DNA of 64,000 nucleotides, from NCBI RefSeq assembly GCF_965641715.1, contig NZ_OZ282453.1; one strand, 5' to 3'. This document shows positions 4,553 to 50,585 of this stretch, one piece after another (positions within the stretch are counted from its first letter, which is position 1; every line of letters begins with the position of its first letter). Position numbers and translations under genes: made by a program. The stretch is from Escherichia coli. GTDB lineage: Bacteria; Pseudomonadota; Gammaproteobacteria; Enterobacterales; Enterobacteriaceae. The notes below the pieces were generated by a model. It did not search any database, had not been told where the DNA came from, and saw only the letters and a program-made list of their open reading frames with translations.

Positions 4553-6997
4553 TTACACCTTTTCAACCTGAACAAGGTTTGTATGTGACGGATTCCCCTT
4601 AGCGAGAGGAGACGGACGTTGAGTGGTCAGTACGTTAATACAACCACCCTTATCGACACGTTTTGCATCCGGGTCATACCAGGCACCTTCACCCAGTGCG
4701 ACCACACCCGGCATCATTCGTGGCGTCACTTTCGCCTCAATATGAACCTCACCACGATCGTTAAAGATCCTGACTTTATCGCCGTTGTGGATACCGCGTT
4801 TTTGGGCATCAAGCGGGTTGATCCACATTTCCTGACGGCAAGCCGCTTTCAGCACATCAACGTTGCCGTAAGTTGAGTGAACGCGAGATTTATAGTGGAA
4901 ACCTGTAAGCTGCAGCGGATACTGTTTGTTCAGCGGATCCTGATAACTTTCAAAGCCCGGCGTGTAGATCGGCAGTGGATCGATCACATCGCCTTCTGGC
5001 AATTCCCAGGTAGCGGCAATGTCAGCCAGCGCCTGCGAATAAATCTCAATTTTACCCGATGGCGTGGTCAGTGGATTTGCCTGCGGATCTTCACGGAAGG
5101 CTTTATAAGCAACGTGATGCCCTTGTGGGTCGCGCTTTTTAAAGATCCCCTGCTTGCGGAACTCTTCAAACGTTGGCAGTTCAGGAATCGCTTTCCGCGA
5201 CTGGGCATACAGATGCCGCATCCACTCTTCCTGGGTACGACCTTCAGTAAACTGTTGCTCAACGCCAAGACGTTTTGCCAGTTCGCTGGTCATCTCATAG
5301 ATGGTCTTACATTCAAAGCGCGGTTTAATCACCTGATCGTTGAAAATCACGTAAGACATATTCCCGCAGGATGCATCCAGCGCAAAGTCCATCTGTTCGG
5401 AAGCGGTGCAGTCAGGCAGCAGGATGTCAGCATATTTCGCCGATGAAGTCATGTGGCAGTCGATAACCACAATCAGCTCGCACTTCTTATCATCCTGGAG
5501 GATTTCATGGGTACGGTTGATTTCAGAATGCTGGTTAATCAGGCAGTTACCGGCATAGTTCCAGATCATTTTGATCGGCACATCCAGCTTATCTTTCCCG
5601 CGCACACCATCACGCAGCGCCGTCATTTCCGGGCCACGTTCAATGGCATCGGTCCACATAAACATCGAAATGCTGGTCTGGATCGGGTTTTCCAAGGTCG
5701 GCATACGGACAAACGGTAAGCTGTATGAACCTTCACGCGCGCCGCTGTTCCCTCCATTAATACCAACGTTACCGGTCAGAATCGCCAGCATCGAGATAGC
5801 ACGGGTTGCGATTTCACCGTTAGCGTGACGCTGCGGGCCCCATCCCTGGCTGATAAACGCCGGTTTGGTACTGCCGATTTCACGAGCCAGTTTGATGATT
5901 TTGTCTGCCGGAACACCGGTGATTTGCGAGGCCCATTCCGGTGTTTTAGCCACGCCATCTGGCCCTTCACCCAGAATATAAGCTTTATAGTGGCCATTTT
6001 TCGGCGCACTGGCTGGCAGGGTTTTCTCATCGTAGCCAACGCAATATTTATCGAGGAATGCCTGATCCACCAGGTTTTCAGTGATCATGACGTACGCCAG
6101 ACCGTTAACCAGTGCGGCATCTGTTCCCGGACGAATAGGGATCCACTCATCTTCGCGCCCGGCACCGGTGTCGGTATAGCGCGGATCGATGATGATCATG
6201 CGGGCATTAGATTTCTGGCGTGCCTGTTCAAGATAGTAAGTCACCCCACCGCCACTCATTCGCGTTTCGCCAGGGTTATTACCAAACAGCACTACCAGCT
6301 TACTGTTTTCGATATCCGACGGGCTGTTGCCATCTGCCCAGCCGCCGTAGGTATAGTTCAGACCTTCCGCAATTTGCGCGGAAGAGTAGTCACCGTAATG
6401 GTTCAGATAACCGCCGCAGCAGTTCATCAGCCGCGCGACCAGGGTATTTCCCGGCGGCCAGGAGCGGGTCATGGTGCCACCCAGCGTACCGGTGCCATAG
6501 TTAAGATAGATGGATTCGTTGCCGTACTCTTTGATCAGGCGCTGCATATTGGTCGCGATGATGTCGTAGGCTTCTTCCCAGCTAATGCGCTCGAATTTGC
6601 CTTCACCGCGCGCCCCGACTCGTTTCATCGGATATTTCAGGCGGTCCGGATTATAGACACGGCGACGCATGGAACGCCCACGCAAACAGGCGCGAACCTG
6701 GTGCAGGCCGTCGTAATTGTCATCGCCGGTATTGTCCGTTTCGACATATTTGATTTCACCGTCCACGACGTGCATACGTAGCGGGCAGCGACTACCACAG
6801 TTAACTGTACAGGCGCTCCAGATAACCTTTTCGTCTGATTTTGTTGGAATGGCGCTATCGACAGCGTGCGCAATCCGACTAAAAGGTAATGTTAATGCGC
6901 TGCTGGCCATTGCCAGGCCGCCGATCGCTGTCGTTTTTACTAAACCACGGCGACTCACCTCAGCAGCCAATACCGCATCAGGGATTTTCGTTTTCAT
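4553..6997 (-). CDS. dmsA: DMSO reductase catalytic subunit DmsA (molybdopterin, Tat-exported)
   Basis: 814 aa; N-terminal twin-arginine motif SRRGLVK; molybdopterin oxidoreductase family. Confidence 0.95.
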   Translation of the reverse strand: MKTKIPDAVLAAEVSRRGLVKTTAIGGLAMASSALTLPFSRIAHAVDSAIPTKSDEKVIWSACTVNCGSRCPLRMHVVDGEIKYVETDNTGDDNYDGLHQVRACLRGRSMRRRVYNPDRLKYPMKRVGARGEGKFERISWEEAYDIIATNMQRLIKEYGNESIYLNYGTGTLGGTMTRSWPPGNTLVARLMNCCGGYLNHYGDYSSAQIAEGLNYTYGGWADGNSPSDIENSKLVVLFGNNPGETRMSGGGVTYYLEQARQKSNARMIIIDPRYTDTGAGREDEWIPIRPGTDAALVNGLAYVMITENLVDQAFLDKYCVGYDEKTLPASAPKNGHYKAYILGEGPDGVAKTPEWASQITGVPADKIIKLAREIGSTKPAFISQGWGPQRHANGEIATRAISMLAILTGNVGINGGNSGAREGSYSLPFVRMPTLENPIQTSISMFMWTDAIERGPEMTALRDGVRGKDKLDVPIKMIWNYAGNCLINQHSEINRTHEILQDDKKCELIVVIDCHMTSSAKYADILLPDCTASEQMDFALDASCGNMSYVIFNDQVIKPRFECKTIYEMTSELAKRLGVEQQFTEGRTQEEWMRHLYAQSRKAIPELPTFEEFRKQGIFKKRDPQGHHVAYKAFREDPQANPLTTPSGKIEIYSQALADIAATWELPEGDVIDPLPIYTPGFESYQDPLNKQYPLQLTGFHYKSRVHSTYGNVDVLKAACRQEMWINPLDAQKRGIHNGDKVRIFNDRGEVHIEAKVTPRMMPGVVALGEGAWYDPDAKRVDKGGCINVLTTQRPSPLAKGNPSHTNLVQVEKV

Positions 6998-10738: not shown

Positions 10739-13700
10739 TTAGTCAAACGGCGGTGGGGCCAGCACTTCACGATTACCGTTGTGCCCCTGTTCGCTGACAA
10801 TCCCCTGCGCTTCCATCTGTTCGATAATACGCGCTGCACGGTTATAACCAATGCGGAACTGACGCTGTACGCCAGAAATTGACGCTTTGCGTTTTTCAGT
10901 GACAAACTGCACCGCCTGATCGAACAACGGATCCAGTTCTTCAGCGCCATCGAAACCACCCGCACCACCTTCGCTTTCGCTGTCGGAGGTGATGCCATCA
11001 ACATACTGTGGGCGACCACGCGCTTTCCAGTCCTGCACCACGGCATGAACTTCCTGATCGCGAACAAAAGCACCATGGACACGTACCGGCAACGTGGAGT
11101 TCGGCCCAGAGTAGAGCATATCCCCCATACCCAGCAGTGATTCCGCGCCAGCCTGATCAAGAATGGTACGTGAGTCAATCTTACTGGATACGGTAAAGGC
11201 GATACGGGTCGGAATATTCGCTTTAATCAGACCAGTAATAACATCAACCGATGGACGCTGAGTTGCCAGTACGAGGTGGATACCCGCGGCACGGGCTTTT
11301 TGCGCCAGACGTGCTATCAGCTCTTCCACTTTTTTACCTACCGTCATCATCAGGTCGGCAAATTCGTCCACCAACACCACAATGTATGGTTCTTTTTTCA
11401 GCACCGGATGCTGGGCATCCATACTGTCACCCGGCTTCCAGTACGGGTCTGGAATCGGACGCATCATGCGATCGGCTTCAGCAATTTTTTCGTTATAACC
11501 CGCCAGATTACGCACACCCAGCGCAGACATCAGTTTATACCGACGCTCCATCTCGTTAACACACCAGCGCAGCGCGTTGGCGGCATCTTTCATATCAGTA
11601 ACGACTTCCGTTAACAGGTGCGGAATGCCTTCATAAACCGAAAGCTCCAGCATTTTCGGGTCGATCATGATGAAACGCACATCTTCTGGCTGTGCTTTAT
11701 AAAGCATGCTCAGGATCATCGCGTTCACACCGACAGATTTACCGGAACCGGTAGTCCCCGCAACCAACAAGTGCGGCATTTTCGCCAGATCGGCAACCAC
11801 CGGCTCACCGGCGATATCTTTACCCAGCACCACGGTTAATGGCGATGGATTATCGCGGAATTTGGCGTTATCCAATACTTCGCGCAGATAAACGGTTTGT
11901 CGTTTTTTATTCGGTAACTCCAGACCTACATAGGGTTTGCCAGGAATAACTTCAACGACACGCACCGCCACCGTCGAAAGTGAACGGGCAAGGTCCCGTG
12001 ACAAGTTAGAAATGCGCGCCGCTTTTACGCCAGGAGCCAGGTTAAGTTCAAAGCGAGTGATAACCGGCCCCGGAGAGTAATTGACGACATCGGCTTTAAT
12101 ACGGAAATCAGCCAGACGCGCTTCCACCAGGCGAGCCATTTGTTCAAGCGCAAAGGTATCTACCGGCTCCACTTCGCTCGGCGGCGGTGTCAGCAAATCC
12201 AGAGAAGGCAGCGGCGTCGTCGGTTTATGCAACGGACGGCTGTCGCCATTACGCATCAACAGCGGATGAAGCAGGGTATCCTGCGGCTGTGGCGCAACTG
12301 GCTGTTGTGGCTGCTGATACTGCGGCTGCGGTGCAACCGGTTGTTGCGGCTGTTGATACTGCGGCTGCGGCGCAACTGGTTGTTGCGGCTGCTGATATTG
12401 CTGCTGTGGCGCAACCGGTTGTTGCGGCTGCTGTACAGGTTCAACAATTGGCGTAAACAGCGGTTCGTGTGGACCATCATCCAGCAACGCTTTCATTGGT
12501 GAAAATTCAAAATCATCCAGCGTGAACGGATTCGCCCCAGCCGGTTGTTCGCAGGAATAACGTTGTTGTTGAGTTTGCGCAAACTGACGAGCCAGTTCAG
12601 CCTCTGCCGCAGCATCTGCATCTTCTGCGTTTACGGGCACATCATGTTGATACTGTTCGCCATAGCGTTGCTGCTGTGTCTGGGCGAACTGACGTGCCAG
12701 TTCATCCTGCTGCATCGCATCGATTTCATCATCGTTGTACTGATCGCCAGAATCGTACTGATTGCGCTGGGCTTCACGGGCTTTTTCTTCCGCCGCACGC
12801 TGTGAGGGCAGCTTAATACCGTAAGACGCCAATTCACGACGAGTTGGCACGCGGATACGTTTCGGTCGTGGCAACTGCGGGCCAATCCCCTCTTTGACCT
12901 GCGGACGCGGTCCACCGCTATTTGCCAGACTGAAGACTGGCGCGGCAACGGTTGCGGCAGCCCCCGTCGCCAGTGTCGCTTTTTTCACGCCAGATGCCAG
13001 CGGAGAAACAGCGGCAGCGGCTTCTACTGGAGGTACTGCTGCAACAGAAGGTGCTTTCAGCGAAGATTTGATCGGTTCTGGTTCTTTAACCGGTTCTGGA
13101 ATCGGTTGATACCAGGCCGCAAGTTGTTCACGTTCACGGGCTCGCTTCTCTTCCACTTCTTCAAAGTAGTAAAGCGGCGGACGCGCGGGTTTTGTCTCTT
13201 CTACAACGGGTTCAGGCTCCACAACAGGCTGCTGTTCAACAGGTTGCGGCTGTTGGTACAACGGCTCCTGAGCGGCTGGCTGCTGATAAGTTTGCTCAGT
13301 CTGGTATGTAGACTGTGGAGCAAAAGTGGATTGCTGCTCTTCGGCTTGCCAGGCGTTACCTGCCACCGGTTGTTCTGGCGCAGGGGCATAATACGGCTGT
13401 TGCGCAGGCTGTTCCGGCGCAGTTGCGTAATACGGTTGCTGAACAGGTTGTTCCGCCGCAGGAGCGTAGTAAGGTTGTTGCGCAGGTTGTTCAGCTGCAG
13501 GTGCATAATACGGCTGCTGCGGCTGTACTGGTTGTTGCAGCGGCTCATTATATTGCACTGCAGGCTGCGCATATTGTGACTGCTGTGGGTAACCTTCCGG
13601 TGCAGGAGCAATAACCGGCTCTCCCGTTTGTGGACCCGGTACAGGCTGCCAGGCTACTGTAGGTTGCGAAGGTGGAACATCAACAGAGGCAACAGGCGGC

Positions 13701-31481: not shown

Positions 31482-31906
31482 ATCCCCTCCAGAAATATGT
31501 GACTTATCCTTTACGCTGGCAGTATAACGGGAAAGGCCTTGCTAATACGTGATGACATCACATTTAAGCATGGCAAATGTCTGAAAAATGAGCGAATAAT
31601 CGCGTTATACTCCCTCTTGCTGATAAGTCTGCAAAAACAACAAAATCAAATAATTAGCATGATAAATTATTTTTTATTACGCCTAAAGGATTAAATCTTT
31701 TGCTTGCACTACACTGTCAATCAGACAAATGACTATATGGGGCAACCCGCTGTTGCCCTAAATCAAATTTACTGGATTTATTTATCTGGTGAATGACTCG
31801 CCTTCGTTTTTAAAATAGCCGCGCATTATTTCCGTCGTCACTTTTTTACGACGACCCTATAAAACGACCATATTTTTCACAGGGTCAATTTTTAATTGAG
31901 GTGGAT

Positions 31907-32602
31907 ATGTTCAGAAAATTAGCAGCTGAATGTTTTGGTACTTTCTGGCTTGTTTTTGGTGGCTGTGGTAGTGCTGTACTGGCCGCAGGCTTCCCGGAAT
32001 TAGGCATTGGTTTTGCCGGCGTGGCGCTGGCATTCGGTTTGACCGTTCTGACGATGGCCTTCGCTGTTGGTCATATTTCTGGTGGTCATTTTAACCCAGC
32101 GGTCACTATTGGTTTATGGGCTGGCGGACGTTTTCCGGCAAAAGAAGTCGTTGGCTACGTAATTGCCCAGGTTGTCGGCGGTATTGTTGCAGCGGCGCTG
32201 CTGTATTTAATTGCCAGTGGTAAAACGGGTTTTGACGCGGCAGCCAGCGGTTTTGCTTCTAACGGTTATGGCGAGCATTCACCAGGCGGTTATTCCATGC
32301 TTTCCGCGCTGGTAGTTGAACTGGTATTGAGTGCAGGTTTCCTGTTGGTGATCCACGGCGCAACCGACAAATTCGCTCCGGCAGGTTTTGCGCCGATCGC
32401 TATTGGTCTGGCCTTAACCCTGATTCACTTAATCAGTATTCCGGTGACTAACACTTCTGTTAACCCGGCGCGCAGCACCGCAGTTGCCATCTTCCAGGGC
32501 GGCTGGGCATTAGAACAACTGTGGTTCTTCTGGGTGGTGCCAATTGTCGGTGGCATTATCGGTGGTCTGATTTACCGGACTCTGCTGGAAAAGCGTAATT
32601 AA
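31907..32602 (+). CDS. aqpZ: Aquaporin Z
   Basis: 231 aa from [19 protein letters not shown]; two NPA motifs ([16 protein letters not shown]). Confidence 0.95.
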
Positions 32603-32639
32603 TTAGCATTGGCATTTTATCTGCCCTGGTTGTTTTATC

Positions 32640-32900
32640 TTCGACATTACAAACCGCACGGGTATTGGTGGCGTCAAAATCGCTGAAGCGTTCCCCGAAG
32701 GCCGGGGCAGCCCACATGGATGTGGGCTGAGGGTGCGTCTTACAGGACGTTACCTCGCGCCCGACCCGGTAGCCGAAGGGGATAAGCTGAAGGTACCGCG
32801 CAGCGGCGATTTTGTTCGCCAGAGCCCGGGGGTGCAGGGGGCGGCGGCGACTGGCCGCCCCCTGCGCGCTCCCTGCGCCAGTGGCTTTATATGGCATTGC
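32640..32900. other. GC-rich, hairpin-dense intergenic element between aqpZ and lysO (function unknown)
   Basis: Several perfect inverted repeats (cagcccacat-gg-atgtgggctg; gggggcgg...ccgccccc; ccccg-aaggc-cgggg) and a local GC content well above that of neighbouring intergenic DNA. Confidence 0.4.
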
Positions 32901-33059
32901 ACATGAAAGGAGCGCAACAATGCTAAACACTCATATAGAATTAAAAATCCCCCTCTGATGCATAACATTTCCTTTTAATTGCAACTTTACTCGTCCTTCC
33001 GCTTTCAGTAGTGTGTCATCGCGCATTTCGACTTCTTTCTTTGCAAGGGCTGGGTTTTC

Positions 33060-33959
33060 ATGTTTTCTGGGTTGTTAATCATTCTGGTTCCCCTGATTGT
33101 GGGTTACCTCATTCCGCTTCGCCAACAAGCTGCGTTAAAAGTTATTAATCAGCTATTAAGCTGGATGGTTTACCTTATTCTCTTTTTTATGGGTATCAGT
33201 CTGGCGTTTCTCGATAACCTCGCCAGTAACCTGTTGGCGATTCTGCATTATTCTGCCGTCAGTATTACCGTTATTTTACTGTGTAATATTGCCGCCCTTA
33301 TGTGGCTGGAGCGCGGTCTGCCGTGGCGCAACCACCATCAGCAAGAAAAACTCCCGTCGCGTATTGCGATGGCGCTTGAGTCGCTAAAACTGTGCGGCGT
33401 AGTAGTGATTGGTTTTGCCATTGGCCTGAGTGGACTGGCTTTCTTACAACACGCGACCGAAGCCAGTGAATACACCTTAATTCTGCTACTTTTCCTCGTC
33501 GGTATTCAGTTGCGCAATAATGGCATGACCTTAAAGCAGATTGTCCTTAATCGCCGGGGAATGATTGTCGCCGTGGTGGTGGTTGCCAGTTCATTAATTG
33601 GTGGTTTAATTAACGCCTTTATTCTTGATCTACCCATCAATACCGCGCTGGCAATGGCCTCTGGTTTCGGCTGGTATTCTCTTTCCGGTATTTTATTGAC
33701 CGAATCTTTTGGTCCGGTAATCGGGAGCGCGGCGTTTTTTAATGATCTGGCCCGTGAGCTGATTGCAATTATGTTGATCCCTGGGCTGATTCGCCGCAGC
33801 CGCTCTACCGCACTGGGCTTATGCGGTGCGACGTCGATGGATTTCACCCTGCCCGTTCTTCAACGTACTGGCGGGCTGGATATGGTCCCGGCGGCAATTG
33901 TTCACGGTTTTATTCTTAGCCTGTTAGTGCCGATCCTCATCGCCTTTTTCTCTGCGTAA
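33060..33959 (+). CDS. lysO: Lysine exporter LysO (YbjE)
   Basis: 299-aa polytopic membrane protein; synteny. Confidence 0.9.
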   Translation: MFSGLLIILVPLIVGYLIPLRQQAALKVINQLLSWMVYLILFFMGISLAFLDNLASNLLAILHYSAVSITVILLCNIAALMWLERGLPWRNHHQQEKLPSRIAMALESLKLCGVVVIGFAIGLSGLAFLQHATEASEYTLILLLFLVGIQLRNNGMTLKQIVLNRRGMIVAVVVVASSLIGGLINAFILDLPINTALAMASGFGWYSLSGILLTESFGPVIGSAAFFNDLARELIAIMLIPGLIRRSRSTALGLCGATSMDFTLPVLQRTGGLDMVPAAIVHGFILSLLVPILIAFFSA

Positions 33960-47439: not shown

Positions 47440-48171
47440 ATGAAAAAAGTTCTGATTGCCGCGTTAATTGCAGGTTTTAGTCTTTCCGCCACAGCTGCCG
47501 AAACCATTCGTTTTGCTACCGAAGCCTCCTATCCTCCGTTTGAATCGATTGATGCAAACAACCAGATCGTTGGTTTTGACATCGACCTGGCACAGGCACT
47601 GTGTAAAGAGATTGATGCGACCTGTACTTTCTCTAACCAGGCATTTGACAGCCTGATCCCAAGCCTGAAATTCCGTCGCGTGGAAGCGGTGATGGCGGGC
47701 ATGGATATCACTCCGGAGCGTGAAAAGCAGGTGCTGTTTACCACCCCGTACTATGACAACTCTGCCCTGTTTGTGGGTCAGCAAGGCAAATACACCAGTG
47801 TTGATCAGCTGAAAGGCAAAAAAGTCGGCGTTCAGAACGGGACGACACACCAGAAGTTCATTATGGATAAGCATCCGGAAATCACTACCGTGCCGTATGA
47901 CAGCTACCAGAACGCAAAACTGGATCTGCAAAACGGGCGTATCGACGGCGTCTTCGGTGACACCGCAGTGGTCACTGAGTGGCTGAAAGATAACCCGAAA
48001 CTGGCGGCGGTGGGCGACAAAGTGACCGATAAAGATTACTTCGGCACTGGCCTCGGCATCGCGGTACGTCAGGGCAACACTGAGCTGCAGCAGAAACTCA
48101 ACACTGCGCTGGAAAAAGTGAAGAAAGATGGCACTTACGAAACCATCTACAACAAATGGTTCCAGAAGTAA
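47440..48171 (+). CDS. artI: Arginine-binding periplasmic protein ArtI
   Basis: 243 aa with signal peptide; paralogous to artJ in this window. Confidence 0.93.
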   Translation: MKKVLIAALIAGFSLSATAAETIRFATEASYPPFESIDANNQIVGFDIDLAQALCKEIDATCTFSNQAFDSLIPSLKFRRVEAVMAGMDITPEREKQVLFTTPYYDNSALFVGQQGKYTSVDQLKGKKVGVQNGTTHQKFIMDKHPEITTVPYDSYQNAKLDLQNGRIDGVFGDTAVVTEWLKDNPKLAAVGDKVTDKDYFGTGLGIAVRQGNTELQQKLNTALEKVKKDGTYETIYNKWFQK

Positions 48172-49592: not shown

Positions 49593-49679
49593 GTAGGTCT
49601 GATAAGACGCGCCAGCGTCGCATCAGACATCAGCACAGTGCCTGTACCGGATGCGGCGTGGACGCCTTATCCGGCCTAC
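49593..49679. repeat. BIME containing two REP elements
   Basis: gtaggtctgataagacgcgccagcgtcgcatcagac and taccggatgcggcgtggacgccttatccggcctac (REP consensus) in inverted orientation. Confidence 0.8.
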
Positions 49680-49853: not shown

Positions 49854-50585
49854 ATGAAAAAGTTAGTTCTTGCCGCATTACTGGCATCCTGTGCGTTCGG
49901 CGCTTCTGCCGCAGAGAAAATCAATTTTGGCGTATCAGCGACCTATCCGCCGTTCGAGTCAATGGATGCTAATAACCAGATCGTCGGCTTTGATATCGAC
50001 CTGGCAAAAGCGTTATGCAAACAGATGCAGGCAGAATGTACTTTTACCAATCACGCTTTCGACAGCCTGATCCCGTCACTGAAATTCAGGAAATATGACG
50101 CCGTTATCTCCGGTATGGATATCACGCCAGATCGTAGCAAGCAGGTATCGTTTACCACGCCCTATTACGAAAACTCAGCCGTCGTGATTGCCAAAAAAGA
50201 TACCTACAAAACGTTTGCCGACCTGAAAGGCAAACGCATTGGGATGGAAAACGGTACTACGCACCAGAAATATATTCAGGATCAGCACCCGGAAGTGAAA
50301 ACGGTCTCCTATGACAGTTATCAAAATGCCTTTATCGATCTGAAAAATGGCCGTATTGATGGCGTATTTGGTGACACTGCGGTGGTTAATGAATGGCTGA
50401 AAACCAATCCGCAACTGGGCGTTGCTACTGAAAAAGTGACCGATCCGCAATACTTCGGCACCGGCCTGGGTATCGCTGTACGTCCGGATAACAAAGCTCT
50501 GCTGGAAAAACTGAATAACGCGCTGGCAGCAATTAAAGCTGACGGTACATATCAGAAAATCAGCGATCAGTGGTTCCCGCAATAA
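49854..50585 (+). CDS. artJ: Arginine-binding periplasmic protein ArtJ
   Basis: 243 aa from MKKLVLAALLASCAFGASA; SD gggag upstream. Confidence 0.93.
   Translation: MKKLVLAALLASCAFGASAAEKINFGVSATYPPFESMDANNQIVGFDIDLAKALCKQMQAECTFTNHAFDSLIPSLKFRKYDAVISGMDITPDRSKQVSFTTPYYENSAVVIAKKDTYKTFADLKGKRIGMENGTTHQKYIQDQHPEVKTVSYDSYQNAFIDLKNGRIDGVFGDTAVVNEWLKTNPQLGVATEKVTDPQYFGTGLGIAVRPDNKALLEKLNNALAAIKADGTYQKISDQWFPQ

Follow-up and report, generated by a model that had tools for sequence, protein, structure and literature searches.

Identity of the GC-rich element between aqpZ and lysO

The question raised by this locus is what kind of element fills the unusually GC-rich spacer between aqpZ and the lysine exporter gene lysO (ybjE) in the 64,000-nt stretch of Escherichia coli DNA (contig NZ_OZ282453.1) analysed here, hereafter the window, where the two genes are flanked by ybjD and hcp. 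An initial annotation, made from the sequence alone, had described a multi-hairpin element at 32640-32900 and proposed a structured lysO leader or small RNA, a different repeat family, or the relic of a small insertion. The second proposal was the right one, since the element is almost certainly the TRIP1a copy of the dispersed TRIP1 repeat family and is not specific to lysO. With the spacer as megablast query, positions 44-318 were matched in 5425 of 5426 complete E. coli genomes, at one to nine places each (median four), and further copies were located in the yohP-dusC, efeU-putP and alx-sstT spacers; many near-identical copies of a known family were what the initial annotation itself had named as the finding that would count against it. 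The nhmmer profile of the TRIP1 family matched window positions 32650-32919 (E = 1e-86). The K-12 matches lie at 915008-915283, 1080855-1080997 and 2229121-2229388 of NC_000913 (3009-3284 of our locus L004, 2856-2998 of L010 and 3122-3389 of L011, respectively), and because these coordinates coincide with those published for TRIP1a (915016-915281), TRIP1b (1080855-1081000) and TRIP1c (2229122-2229394) (PMC10888264), the element is assigned to TRIP1.

TRIP1 is therefore already known as a repeat, described in 1999 and again in 2024. According to Li et al. 2024 (Genes 15:236, PMC10888264), it was first described by Rudd 1999 (Res Microbiol); their study recognizes five types at five fixed intergenic loci, with a stable 'double-Y' RNA fold, and assigns the repeat no function. 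Nearly all E. coli genomes have 1-5 or more copies at such fixed positions. The window copy lies at the fixed TRIP1a locus, the aqpZ-ybjE spacer, and is 90.6% identical over 275-276 nt to the K-12 TRIP1a. The comparison with the K-12 spacer, which the initial annotation had recommended, thus found the element there, inverted. The reported GC richness and hairpins were also real: between 32650 and 32899 the GC content amounts to 0.62-0.71, whereas the flanks have 0.37-0.45, and the RNA of the + strand is predicted to fold at -147 kcal/mol (z = -5.4, none of 200 shuffles being as stable), compared with a weaker -130 kcal/mol for the - strand. Both values agree with the GC-rich composition (62-65%) and the stable branched fold that characterize TRIP1, for which -144 kcal/mol was published in the case of TRIP1a (PMC10888264). 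The window copy shares with the TRIP1 of that study its spacer, GC content, branched fold, orientation polymorphism and the inversions between TRIP1a and TRIP1c, and differs from the K-12 TRIP1a in being the reverse-orientation allele, in having the other lineage of domain 1 and in missing the terminator hairpin after aqpZ.

The block at 32640-32900 proved real, but its limits are better placed at 32646-32920 for the conserved 275-nt core, present as one copy within the window, and at 32607-32957 for the block that differs between alleles. All three inverted repeats first noticed are present, namely the perfect 10-nt arms CAGCCCACAT and ATGTGGGCTG (32708-32717 and 32720-32729), the perfect 12-nt arms GCAGGGGGCGGC and GCCGCCCCCTGC (32834-32845 and 32854-32865) and CCCCG-AAGGC-CGGGG (32693-32707), but the family consensus does not favour the last as a small local hairpin and pairs its CCCCG and CGGGG bases long-range. 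The element has two CGAAGG motifs, near 32695 and 32773. Searches for tRNA and tmRNA genes were negative, and phage records contained no match to the element.

As first reported, the element does not contain the REP/BIME consensus: a degenerate REP (repetitive extragenic palindromic) pattern, searched with up to three mismatches over the whole window, was absent from it. The sole REP-like match of the window is at 49593-49628 on the - strand, with two mismatches, and ordinary REPs are thus distinct from TRIP1. Like REP/BIME and ERIC (IRU) sequences, TRIP1 is dispersed, intergenic, located downstream of genes, hairpin-forming, found in either orientation and a target of site-specific insertion sequence (IS) elements; however, it has no sequence relationship to either, is larger (about 275 nt), has a far lower copy number and adopts a branched fold of several domains instead of a single palindrome. 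The boxC/PIT repeats are GC-rich and intergenic as well, but unrelated in sequence and structure. Identification of the 12-bp GC hairpin as boxC was dropped because that name denotes a triplex-type purine/pyrimidine motif about 56 bp long (PMC4666352). Nor could the element be confirmed as the old 'RSA' repeat (152 bp), TRIP1 being the right name, and a group II intron domain V, a retron, an IS110 bridge RNA and IS200/IS605 ends were also dropped, as a defining motif or partner gene was missing.

Two orientation alleles and rearrangements

In K-12 and BL21 the element occupies the same spacer on the opposite strand, and the K-12 arrangement is present in 4028 of the 5426 genomes; the whole spacer as in the window occurs in only 895. 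Published counts for orientation are 3448 forward versus 1255 reverse at the TRIP1a locus and 2952 versus 2789 at the TRIP1c locus (PMC10888264). The window thus carries the minority 'reverse' TRIP1a allele, found in about 16-27% of genomes. The block at 32607-32957 is replaced in K-12 by a terminator hairpin directly after aqpZ (GGCCTG...CAGGCC-T7), different AT-rich flanks and an inverted core of the second lineage, and a scan for terminators found none after aqpZ or before lysO in the window allele. When only the flanks were used as query in a spread sample of 60 genomes, the span of the locus was obtained in 58 (the other two matched only the aqpZ half): spans of 690/691 belong to the window type and that of 728 to the K-12 type, beside variants of 715 and 725-730 and internally deleted forms of 646 and 552, and no empty aqpZ-lysO site was seen among these 58 informative genomes.

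In its domain 1 the window copy shares 97% identity with the H5-type yohP-dusC copy and with the full-length efeU-putP copy (lineage A), but only 89-91% with the K-12 TRIP1a and TRIP1c, a pair that agree with one another at 95% (lineage B). At each of the two polymorphic loci, copies of lineage A run with the upstream gene, aqpZ or yohP, and those of lineage B in the opposite direction; the H5-type copy is a mosaic, with an A-like 5' part and a 3' part closest to the K-12 TRIP1a. A recent inversion in situ between the two alleles was ruled out, as the cores have diverged by about 10% and both the flanks and the lineage differ. One possibility is that the coupling of lineage and orientation comes from an ancestral inverted pair, like the pair found in Pseudocitrobacter (see below). 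Short palindromes bound the allele block, a TTAATTAA-like one at 32597-32606, at the aqpZ stop, and ATGCAT at 32958-32963 on the lysO side; TTAATTAA also adjoins the yohP stop beside TRIP1c in MG1655 (L011, 3067-3080). They may be due to chance, or be a signature of recombination or insertion.

Other loci show similar replacements and losses. At alx-sstT, TRIP1d in some strains and boxC in K-12 occupy the same position, a whole-cassette replacement without target duplication (L037, 1054-1668 versus L038, 3047-3444). Internal deletions of TRIP1 are recurrent and differ in their end points (L009, 2501-2643; L010, 2856-2998; L035, 298-436; L034, 322-518), among them a TRIP1b-type form that has lost about 125 nt, a short form of the window type and one of the K type that is without both hairpins, which suggests repeated slippage between GC-rich helices.

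TRIP1 also matters for genome structure. Homologous recombination between its copies at aqpZ-lysO and yohP-dusC turns round about 1.3 Mb across the terminus; 156 chromosomal rearrangements involving TRIP1 have been reported, 88% of them between TRIP1a and TRIP1c (PMC10888264). A rearranged TRIP1a/TRIP1c junction, aqpZ-TRIP1-dusC, was found in strain 2D. In this strain (NZ_CP059003.1; L036, 3153-4923) an IS110-family IS about 1.39 kb long, with GGACGCTCC/GGAGCGTCC as subterminal repeats, lies in the loop region of TRIP1 hairpin 2, inserted between GTAACAT and CCCTGTAAAA, and the split TRIP1 joins aqpZ to dusC. Given that IS110 elements are site-specific, TRIP1 may be a preferred IS110 target.

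TRIP1-like copies in other genera

TRIP1-like copies were found in Klebsiella, in Pseudocitrobacter and in other Escherichia species. One K. pneumoniae chromosome has them in 13 places with 83-86% identity. The Klebsiella units measure about 335 nt, reaching beyond those of E. coli by about 70 nt on the 3' side and by about 25 nt on the 5' side, and are often flanked by REPs yet distinct from them. Two full tandem copies, 437 nt apart and each preceded by a REP, were seen in K. pneumoniae (L012, 1985-2255 and 2422-2692), and a solo left-end fragment follows a full copy in another Klebsiella locus (L014, about 2290-2330). In Pseudocitrobacter vendiensis (L025, 5258-5930) two copies are arranged divergently: the - strand carries one that is TRIP1-like (5320-5590), the + strand one that is highly diverged (about 5640-5880). 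Each is followed by near-identical inverted flanks (CTTAACTGACCAGCATTA...), the right one ending in a T-run; this pair may be a model of the ancestral inverted pair. A further Klebsiella locus (L021, 6326-6410, - strand) has a clear match to the Rfam Peptidase-S11 RNA, of 61.2 bits, about 1 kb from a TRIP1-like copy, which is probably unrelated to TRIP1.

A structure maintained by compensatory substitutions

A consensus fold was computed with RNAalifold from 15 diverse copies. It contains 73 pairs in three domains, 14 of them with compensatory double changes, and 98.9% of the cells are paired. None of 500 shuffles reached the observed values of covariation and pairing, and sliding the 3' partners by 1-3 columns left 38-43% pairing and 0-3 covarying pairs. 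The three-domain structure has thus been kept by compensatory substitutions across Escherichia, Klebsiella and Pseudocitrobacter, and the idea of a structured RNA in the initial annotation holds in this general sense. Wobble cells in the consensus comprise 23 G·U against 4 A·C, from which the folded strand is the + strand of the window, that is the sense strand of aqpZ and lysO; in the K-12 aqpZ-lysO spacer the folded strand is antisense.

Changes were found in the stems of all three domains. In domain 1, closing helices 2 and 3 comprise 18 pairs, five with compensatory changes. The loop of hairpin 1 is invariant in all 15 copies while an A-U pair of its stem is replaced by G-C in seven, and in TRIP1d the loop is kept with a largely rewritten stem. 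The GGA of hairpin 2 is likewise invariant, although the position preceding it can hold G, A, C or U or be deleted, and the stem shows C-G/U-G and A-U/G-C changes. The junction sequence GGGAUAAG is invariant in 15 of 15 copies. Four of the 12 pairs of domain 2 show compensatory double changes, and in domain 3 helix 12 is 96.7% paired, with one pair showing double changes and RGGAGCGC conserved in all copies. Four GGA-containing stretches, in loop 1, loop 2, the junction and domain 3, therefore stay constant while the stems change.

These patterns make it very likely that TRIP1 is under selection for its single-strand structure. [quoted passage not shown] It is dispersed with a copy number that varies by strain, two of its loci are polymorphic in orientation, tandem and partial copies occur in Klebsiella, internal deletions are frequent and it has a documented part in large inversions; scans of the folded strand gave no promoter, and the wobble asymmetry would also be compatible with one active DNA strand. 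On the other hand, the hallmarks of a MITE are missing, with no terminal inverted repeats (the 5' end of the element pairs internally and not with the 3' end), no target-site duplication and no clean empty site. The alternative alleles at aqpZ-lysO, yohP-dusC and alx-sstT are whole-cassette replacements, and the loci are fixed across thousands of genomes. Above all, loops that are constant while stems covary across genera suggest a present ligand rather than past mobility. The explanation that we favour as a whole, and hold to be highly probable, is that the element is a TRIP1a copy in the minority orientation whose folded strand is the sense strand of aqpZ and lysO; as a further proposal, it may act as a module at the RNA level.

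Resemblance to the TwoAYGGAY RNA

For four independent TRIP1 copies the top-scoring Rfam family was the TwoAYGGAY RNA (RF01731), aligned along its entire model and to the folded strand in every case; this was seen when short stretches were rescanned after the Pseudocitrobacter lead. Scores were 24.7 bits for the window copy, 29.8 bits for the K-type TRIP1a, 31.0 bits for Pseudocitrobacter copy 1 and 33.1 bits for TRIP1d, against a gathering cut-off of 43 bits, so that no single one of these matches is convincing by itself. The diverged Pseudocitrobacter copy reached 49.2 bits, above the cut-off, and was also matched by the TRIP1 nhmmer profile with E = 3e-6. TwoAYGGAY was described by Weinberg et al. 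2010 as two hairpins with AYGGAY loops closed by a helix P1, often very long; they found it in Clostridia, gamma-proteobacteria and gut metagenomes, one Psychromonas genome holding several copies, and classed it as probably not cis-regulatory. Their alignment includes the loops ACAGGGACGU and UCAGGGAUGA.

TRIP1 resembles this motif in its long closing helix, which domain 1 possesses, its two adjacent hairpins, its AYGGAY-type loops (CAUGGAUG; ACAGG(G)AYG), its several copies per genome and the lack of a consistent neighbour gene. It differs in having two further conserved hairpin domains and a loop 2 often without a pyrimidine before GGA: loop 1 is AUGGAU, invariant, and loop 2 reads CAGGAC in the window and AGGGAU, AGGGAC, ACGGAC, AUGGAC or AAGGAC in other copies.

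Several observations count against the relationship. No E. coli or Klebsiella copy reaches the RF01731 cut-off, so that TRIP1 is not a member by the Rfam criterion. In a 2.8-kb Rfam scan at E <= 10, RF01731 was not listed for the window copy, only noise, and ten other loci were without an RF01731 match at E <= 0.1. The TRIP1 nhmmer profile found no sequence similarity to the Psychromonas TwoAYGGAY copies, and loop 2 of the window (ACAGGAC) does not literally fit AYGGAY. Nonetheless, we infer that domain 1 belongs to the same structural class as this orphan motif, and we lean towards a true relationship between TRIP1 and TwoAYGGAY. Copies in other genera, covariation, the folded strand, TwoAYGGAY and CsrA are absent from the discussion in PMC10888264, and the covariation, the strand assignment, the Klebsiella and Pseudocitrobacter copies, the TwoAYGGAY resemblance and the CsrA-type loops reported here appear to go beyond the published accounts consulted.

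CsrA-type loops and a possible function

For 25 years no function has been proposed for TRIP1, and three leads are now available: selection on a single-strand fold, a TwoAYGGAY-like core and CsrA-type loops. The conserved loops are CAUGGAUG (loop 1) and CA(N)GGAYG (loop 2), with N being G, A, C, U or absent, so that the GGA stands in an apical loop, in an AUGGA or ruACArGGAugu context, at 32716-32721 and 32742-32749. [quoted passage not shown] The lineage-B loop 2, UACAGGGAUGU, fits the SELEX consensus at 11 of 12 positions. Gardner and Eldai proposed TwoAYGGAY as a CsrA binder, without experimental test (PMC4333381). TRIP1 is like CsrA-binding hairpins, such as those of CsrB/CsrC and of leaders, in its apical-loop GGA, its A/C-N-GGA context and a further GGA over a Shine-Dalgarno (SD)-like sequence. 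The two apical-loop GGA sites are about 29 nt apart, and from the spacing that CsrA tolerates this would suit a CsrA dimer. Unlike CsrB/CsrC, however, each TRIP1 copy offers only 2-4 candidate sites; CsrB has about 18-22 GGA sites.

The element would probably be transcribed as part of the aqpZ 3' untranslated region (UTR) or by read-through towards lysO, given that the window allele is without the K-12 aqpZ terminator hairpin and that none was found before lysO. Once transcribed, it would fold and present two apical-loop AUGGA and CA(N)GGA sites, to which a dimeric RNA-binding protein could bind, CsrA being the obvious candidate. TRIP1 might then act as a portable post-transcriptional module, as a transcript stabiliser, a local protein sink or both, and not as a lysine sensor. 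Binding of TRIP1 by CsrA is possible but doubtful. Rather unlikely, in our opinion, is the more ambitious version in which TRIP1 would be the enterobacterial branch of TwoAYGGAY and a portable CsrA-dimer platform, with two loop GGAs and one GGA over a buried SD-like sequence, where the carrying strand would set the Csr coupling of the neighbouring transcript and the pair of ancient orientation alleles would amount to a natural on/off polymorphism. If these leads are true, both TRIP1 and TwoAYGGAY gain a function, and the orientation alleles at aqpZ-lysO and yohP-dusC become a natural experiment in post-transcriptional coupling.

There are reasons for caution about such a module. Near the element, the + strand of the window yielded neither a sigma-70-like promoter nor a terminator, and neither strand of the K-12 allele yielded one. 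In the gene table of a K-12 CsrA study, all four Yes/No columns, taken to include CLIP-seq, read 'No' for ybjE and for dusC, and neither gene is significantly regulated; the entry for dusC matters because TRIP1c is in sense in the dusC 3' region. The supplement text of that study, as far as available, gives no CsrA peak coordinates in the TRIP1a or TRIP1c spacers. Furthermore, many copies are antisense to both neighbouring genes (the K-12 TRIP1a and the efeU-putP copies), and the frequent deletion forms without both hairpins argue against a strongly required function at each locus.

Another reading is an independent small RNA (sRNA) gene that has a promoter and a terminator to itself and works in trans, perhaps as a minor sponge for CsrA beside CsrB/CsrC. 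In K-12 the folded strand does run at its 3' end into the bidirectional aqpZ terminator hairpin and is turned towards the lysO promoter region at its 5' end, the Pseudocitrobacter divergent pair has a hairpin and T-run after its bona fide TwoAYGGAY copy, and TwoAYGGAY as a class was considered probably not cis-regulatory by Weinberg et al. Yet no promoter-like site was found upstream in either allele, conservation between loci does not extend to the 5' flanks, a copy with 2-4 GGA sites would be a weak sponge and the same 'No' entries for ybjE and dusC do not fit, so that we regard an sRNA gene as quite improbable, though more plausible for the K-12 arrangement.

A leader, as proposed among other options in the initial annotation, or a riboswitch specific to lysO, e.g. 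a lysine-responsive one controlling the exporter, is suggested by the window allele itself, where the element is 140 nt upstream of lysO on the sense strand and its terminal hairpin buries an SD-like AGGAG. It does not survive comparison with other strains, as the element is on the opposite strand of this spacer in most E. coli, including K-12, and recurs at yohP-dusC, efeU-putP and alx-sstT, with copies downstream of yohP/dusC, putP and alx. No riboswitch family was matched in Rfam and the SD-like motif precedes a non-conserved mini-open reading frame (mini-ORF), not lysO; such a leader is therefore very improbable. Hardly credible at all is a protein-coding role for the ORFs at 32556-32930 (-), 32750-32968 (-) and 32733-32906 (+) or for the mini-ORF, which do exist, the last with AGGAG 8 nt before its ATG at 32920, but whose frames are broken by single-base indels between copies and whose substitutions track base-pair covariation and not codon logic. 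The minus-strand ORFs over the element, rightly taken for artefacts at first sight, belong to no Pfam family (nor did any other passing Pfam match appear), and no coding sequence is annotated under the match among the 30 RefSeq E. coli records listed. As to the mini-ORF, its counterpart in other copies differs in length and sequence or is absent, and from its sequence it is probably not a gene. The GC-rich spacer is a catalogued repeat, and to annotate it as lysO leader, gene or new element would be a mistake.

Feature coordinates and other repeats of the window

Table 1. Features of the aqpZ-lysO region, in window coordinates
Feature	Position	Strand	Basis and remarks
aqpZ	31901..32602	+	Upstream gene; ORF and annotation of the identical locus; no terminator hairpin after the stop in the window allele
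Allele-specific block	32607..32957	.	Between the common flanks TAATTAATTA (aqpZ side) and ATGCATAAC (lysO side); alignments of the window, K-12 and four other alleles
TRIP1 core, TRIP1a locus, reverse-orientation allele, lineage A	32646..32920	+	megablast, nhmmer and published coordinates
Domain 1, TwoAYGGAY-like	32663..32825	+	Closing helix 32669-32689 with 32786-32821 around two adjacent hairpins; RF01731 aligns over the whole model, 24.7 bits
Hairpin 1, apical loop CAUGGAUG	32708..32729	+	AUGGAU at 32716-32721
Hairpin 2, apical loop ACAGGACG	32731..32762	+	GGA at 32745-32747
Multiloop junction GGGGAUAAG, third invariant GGA	32778..32786	+	First four bases (32778-32781) pair in consensus helix 4
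Domain 2, perfect 12-bp G+C hairpin with 8-nt loop	32834..32865	+	No U-tract after the hairpin; no terminator-like site found
Domain 3, GCGCUCCC (32866-32873) paired with AGGAGCGC (32908-32915)	32866..32915	+	Buries SD-like AGGAG; loop variable
Mini-ORF MLNTHIELKIPL, 12 codons (probably not a gene)	32920..32958	+	ATG 8 nt after SD-like motif
lysO (ybjE)	33060..33959	+	Downstream gene; the 100 nt before the start are common to both alleles

Two other kinds of repeats were observed in the window. Arrays of 39-nt tandem repeats, with 3-4 units that are 76-88% identical and rich in CTG, CGG and TTG, are located at 12278-12433 and 13368-13521, and probably code for a repetitive linker within a large gene, identified as ftsK in the initial annotation. 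A pair of 151-nt direct repeats (47523-47673 and 49937-50087), 75% identical and 2.4 kb apart, may reflect paralogous genes.

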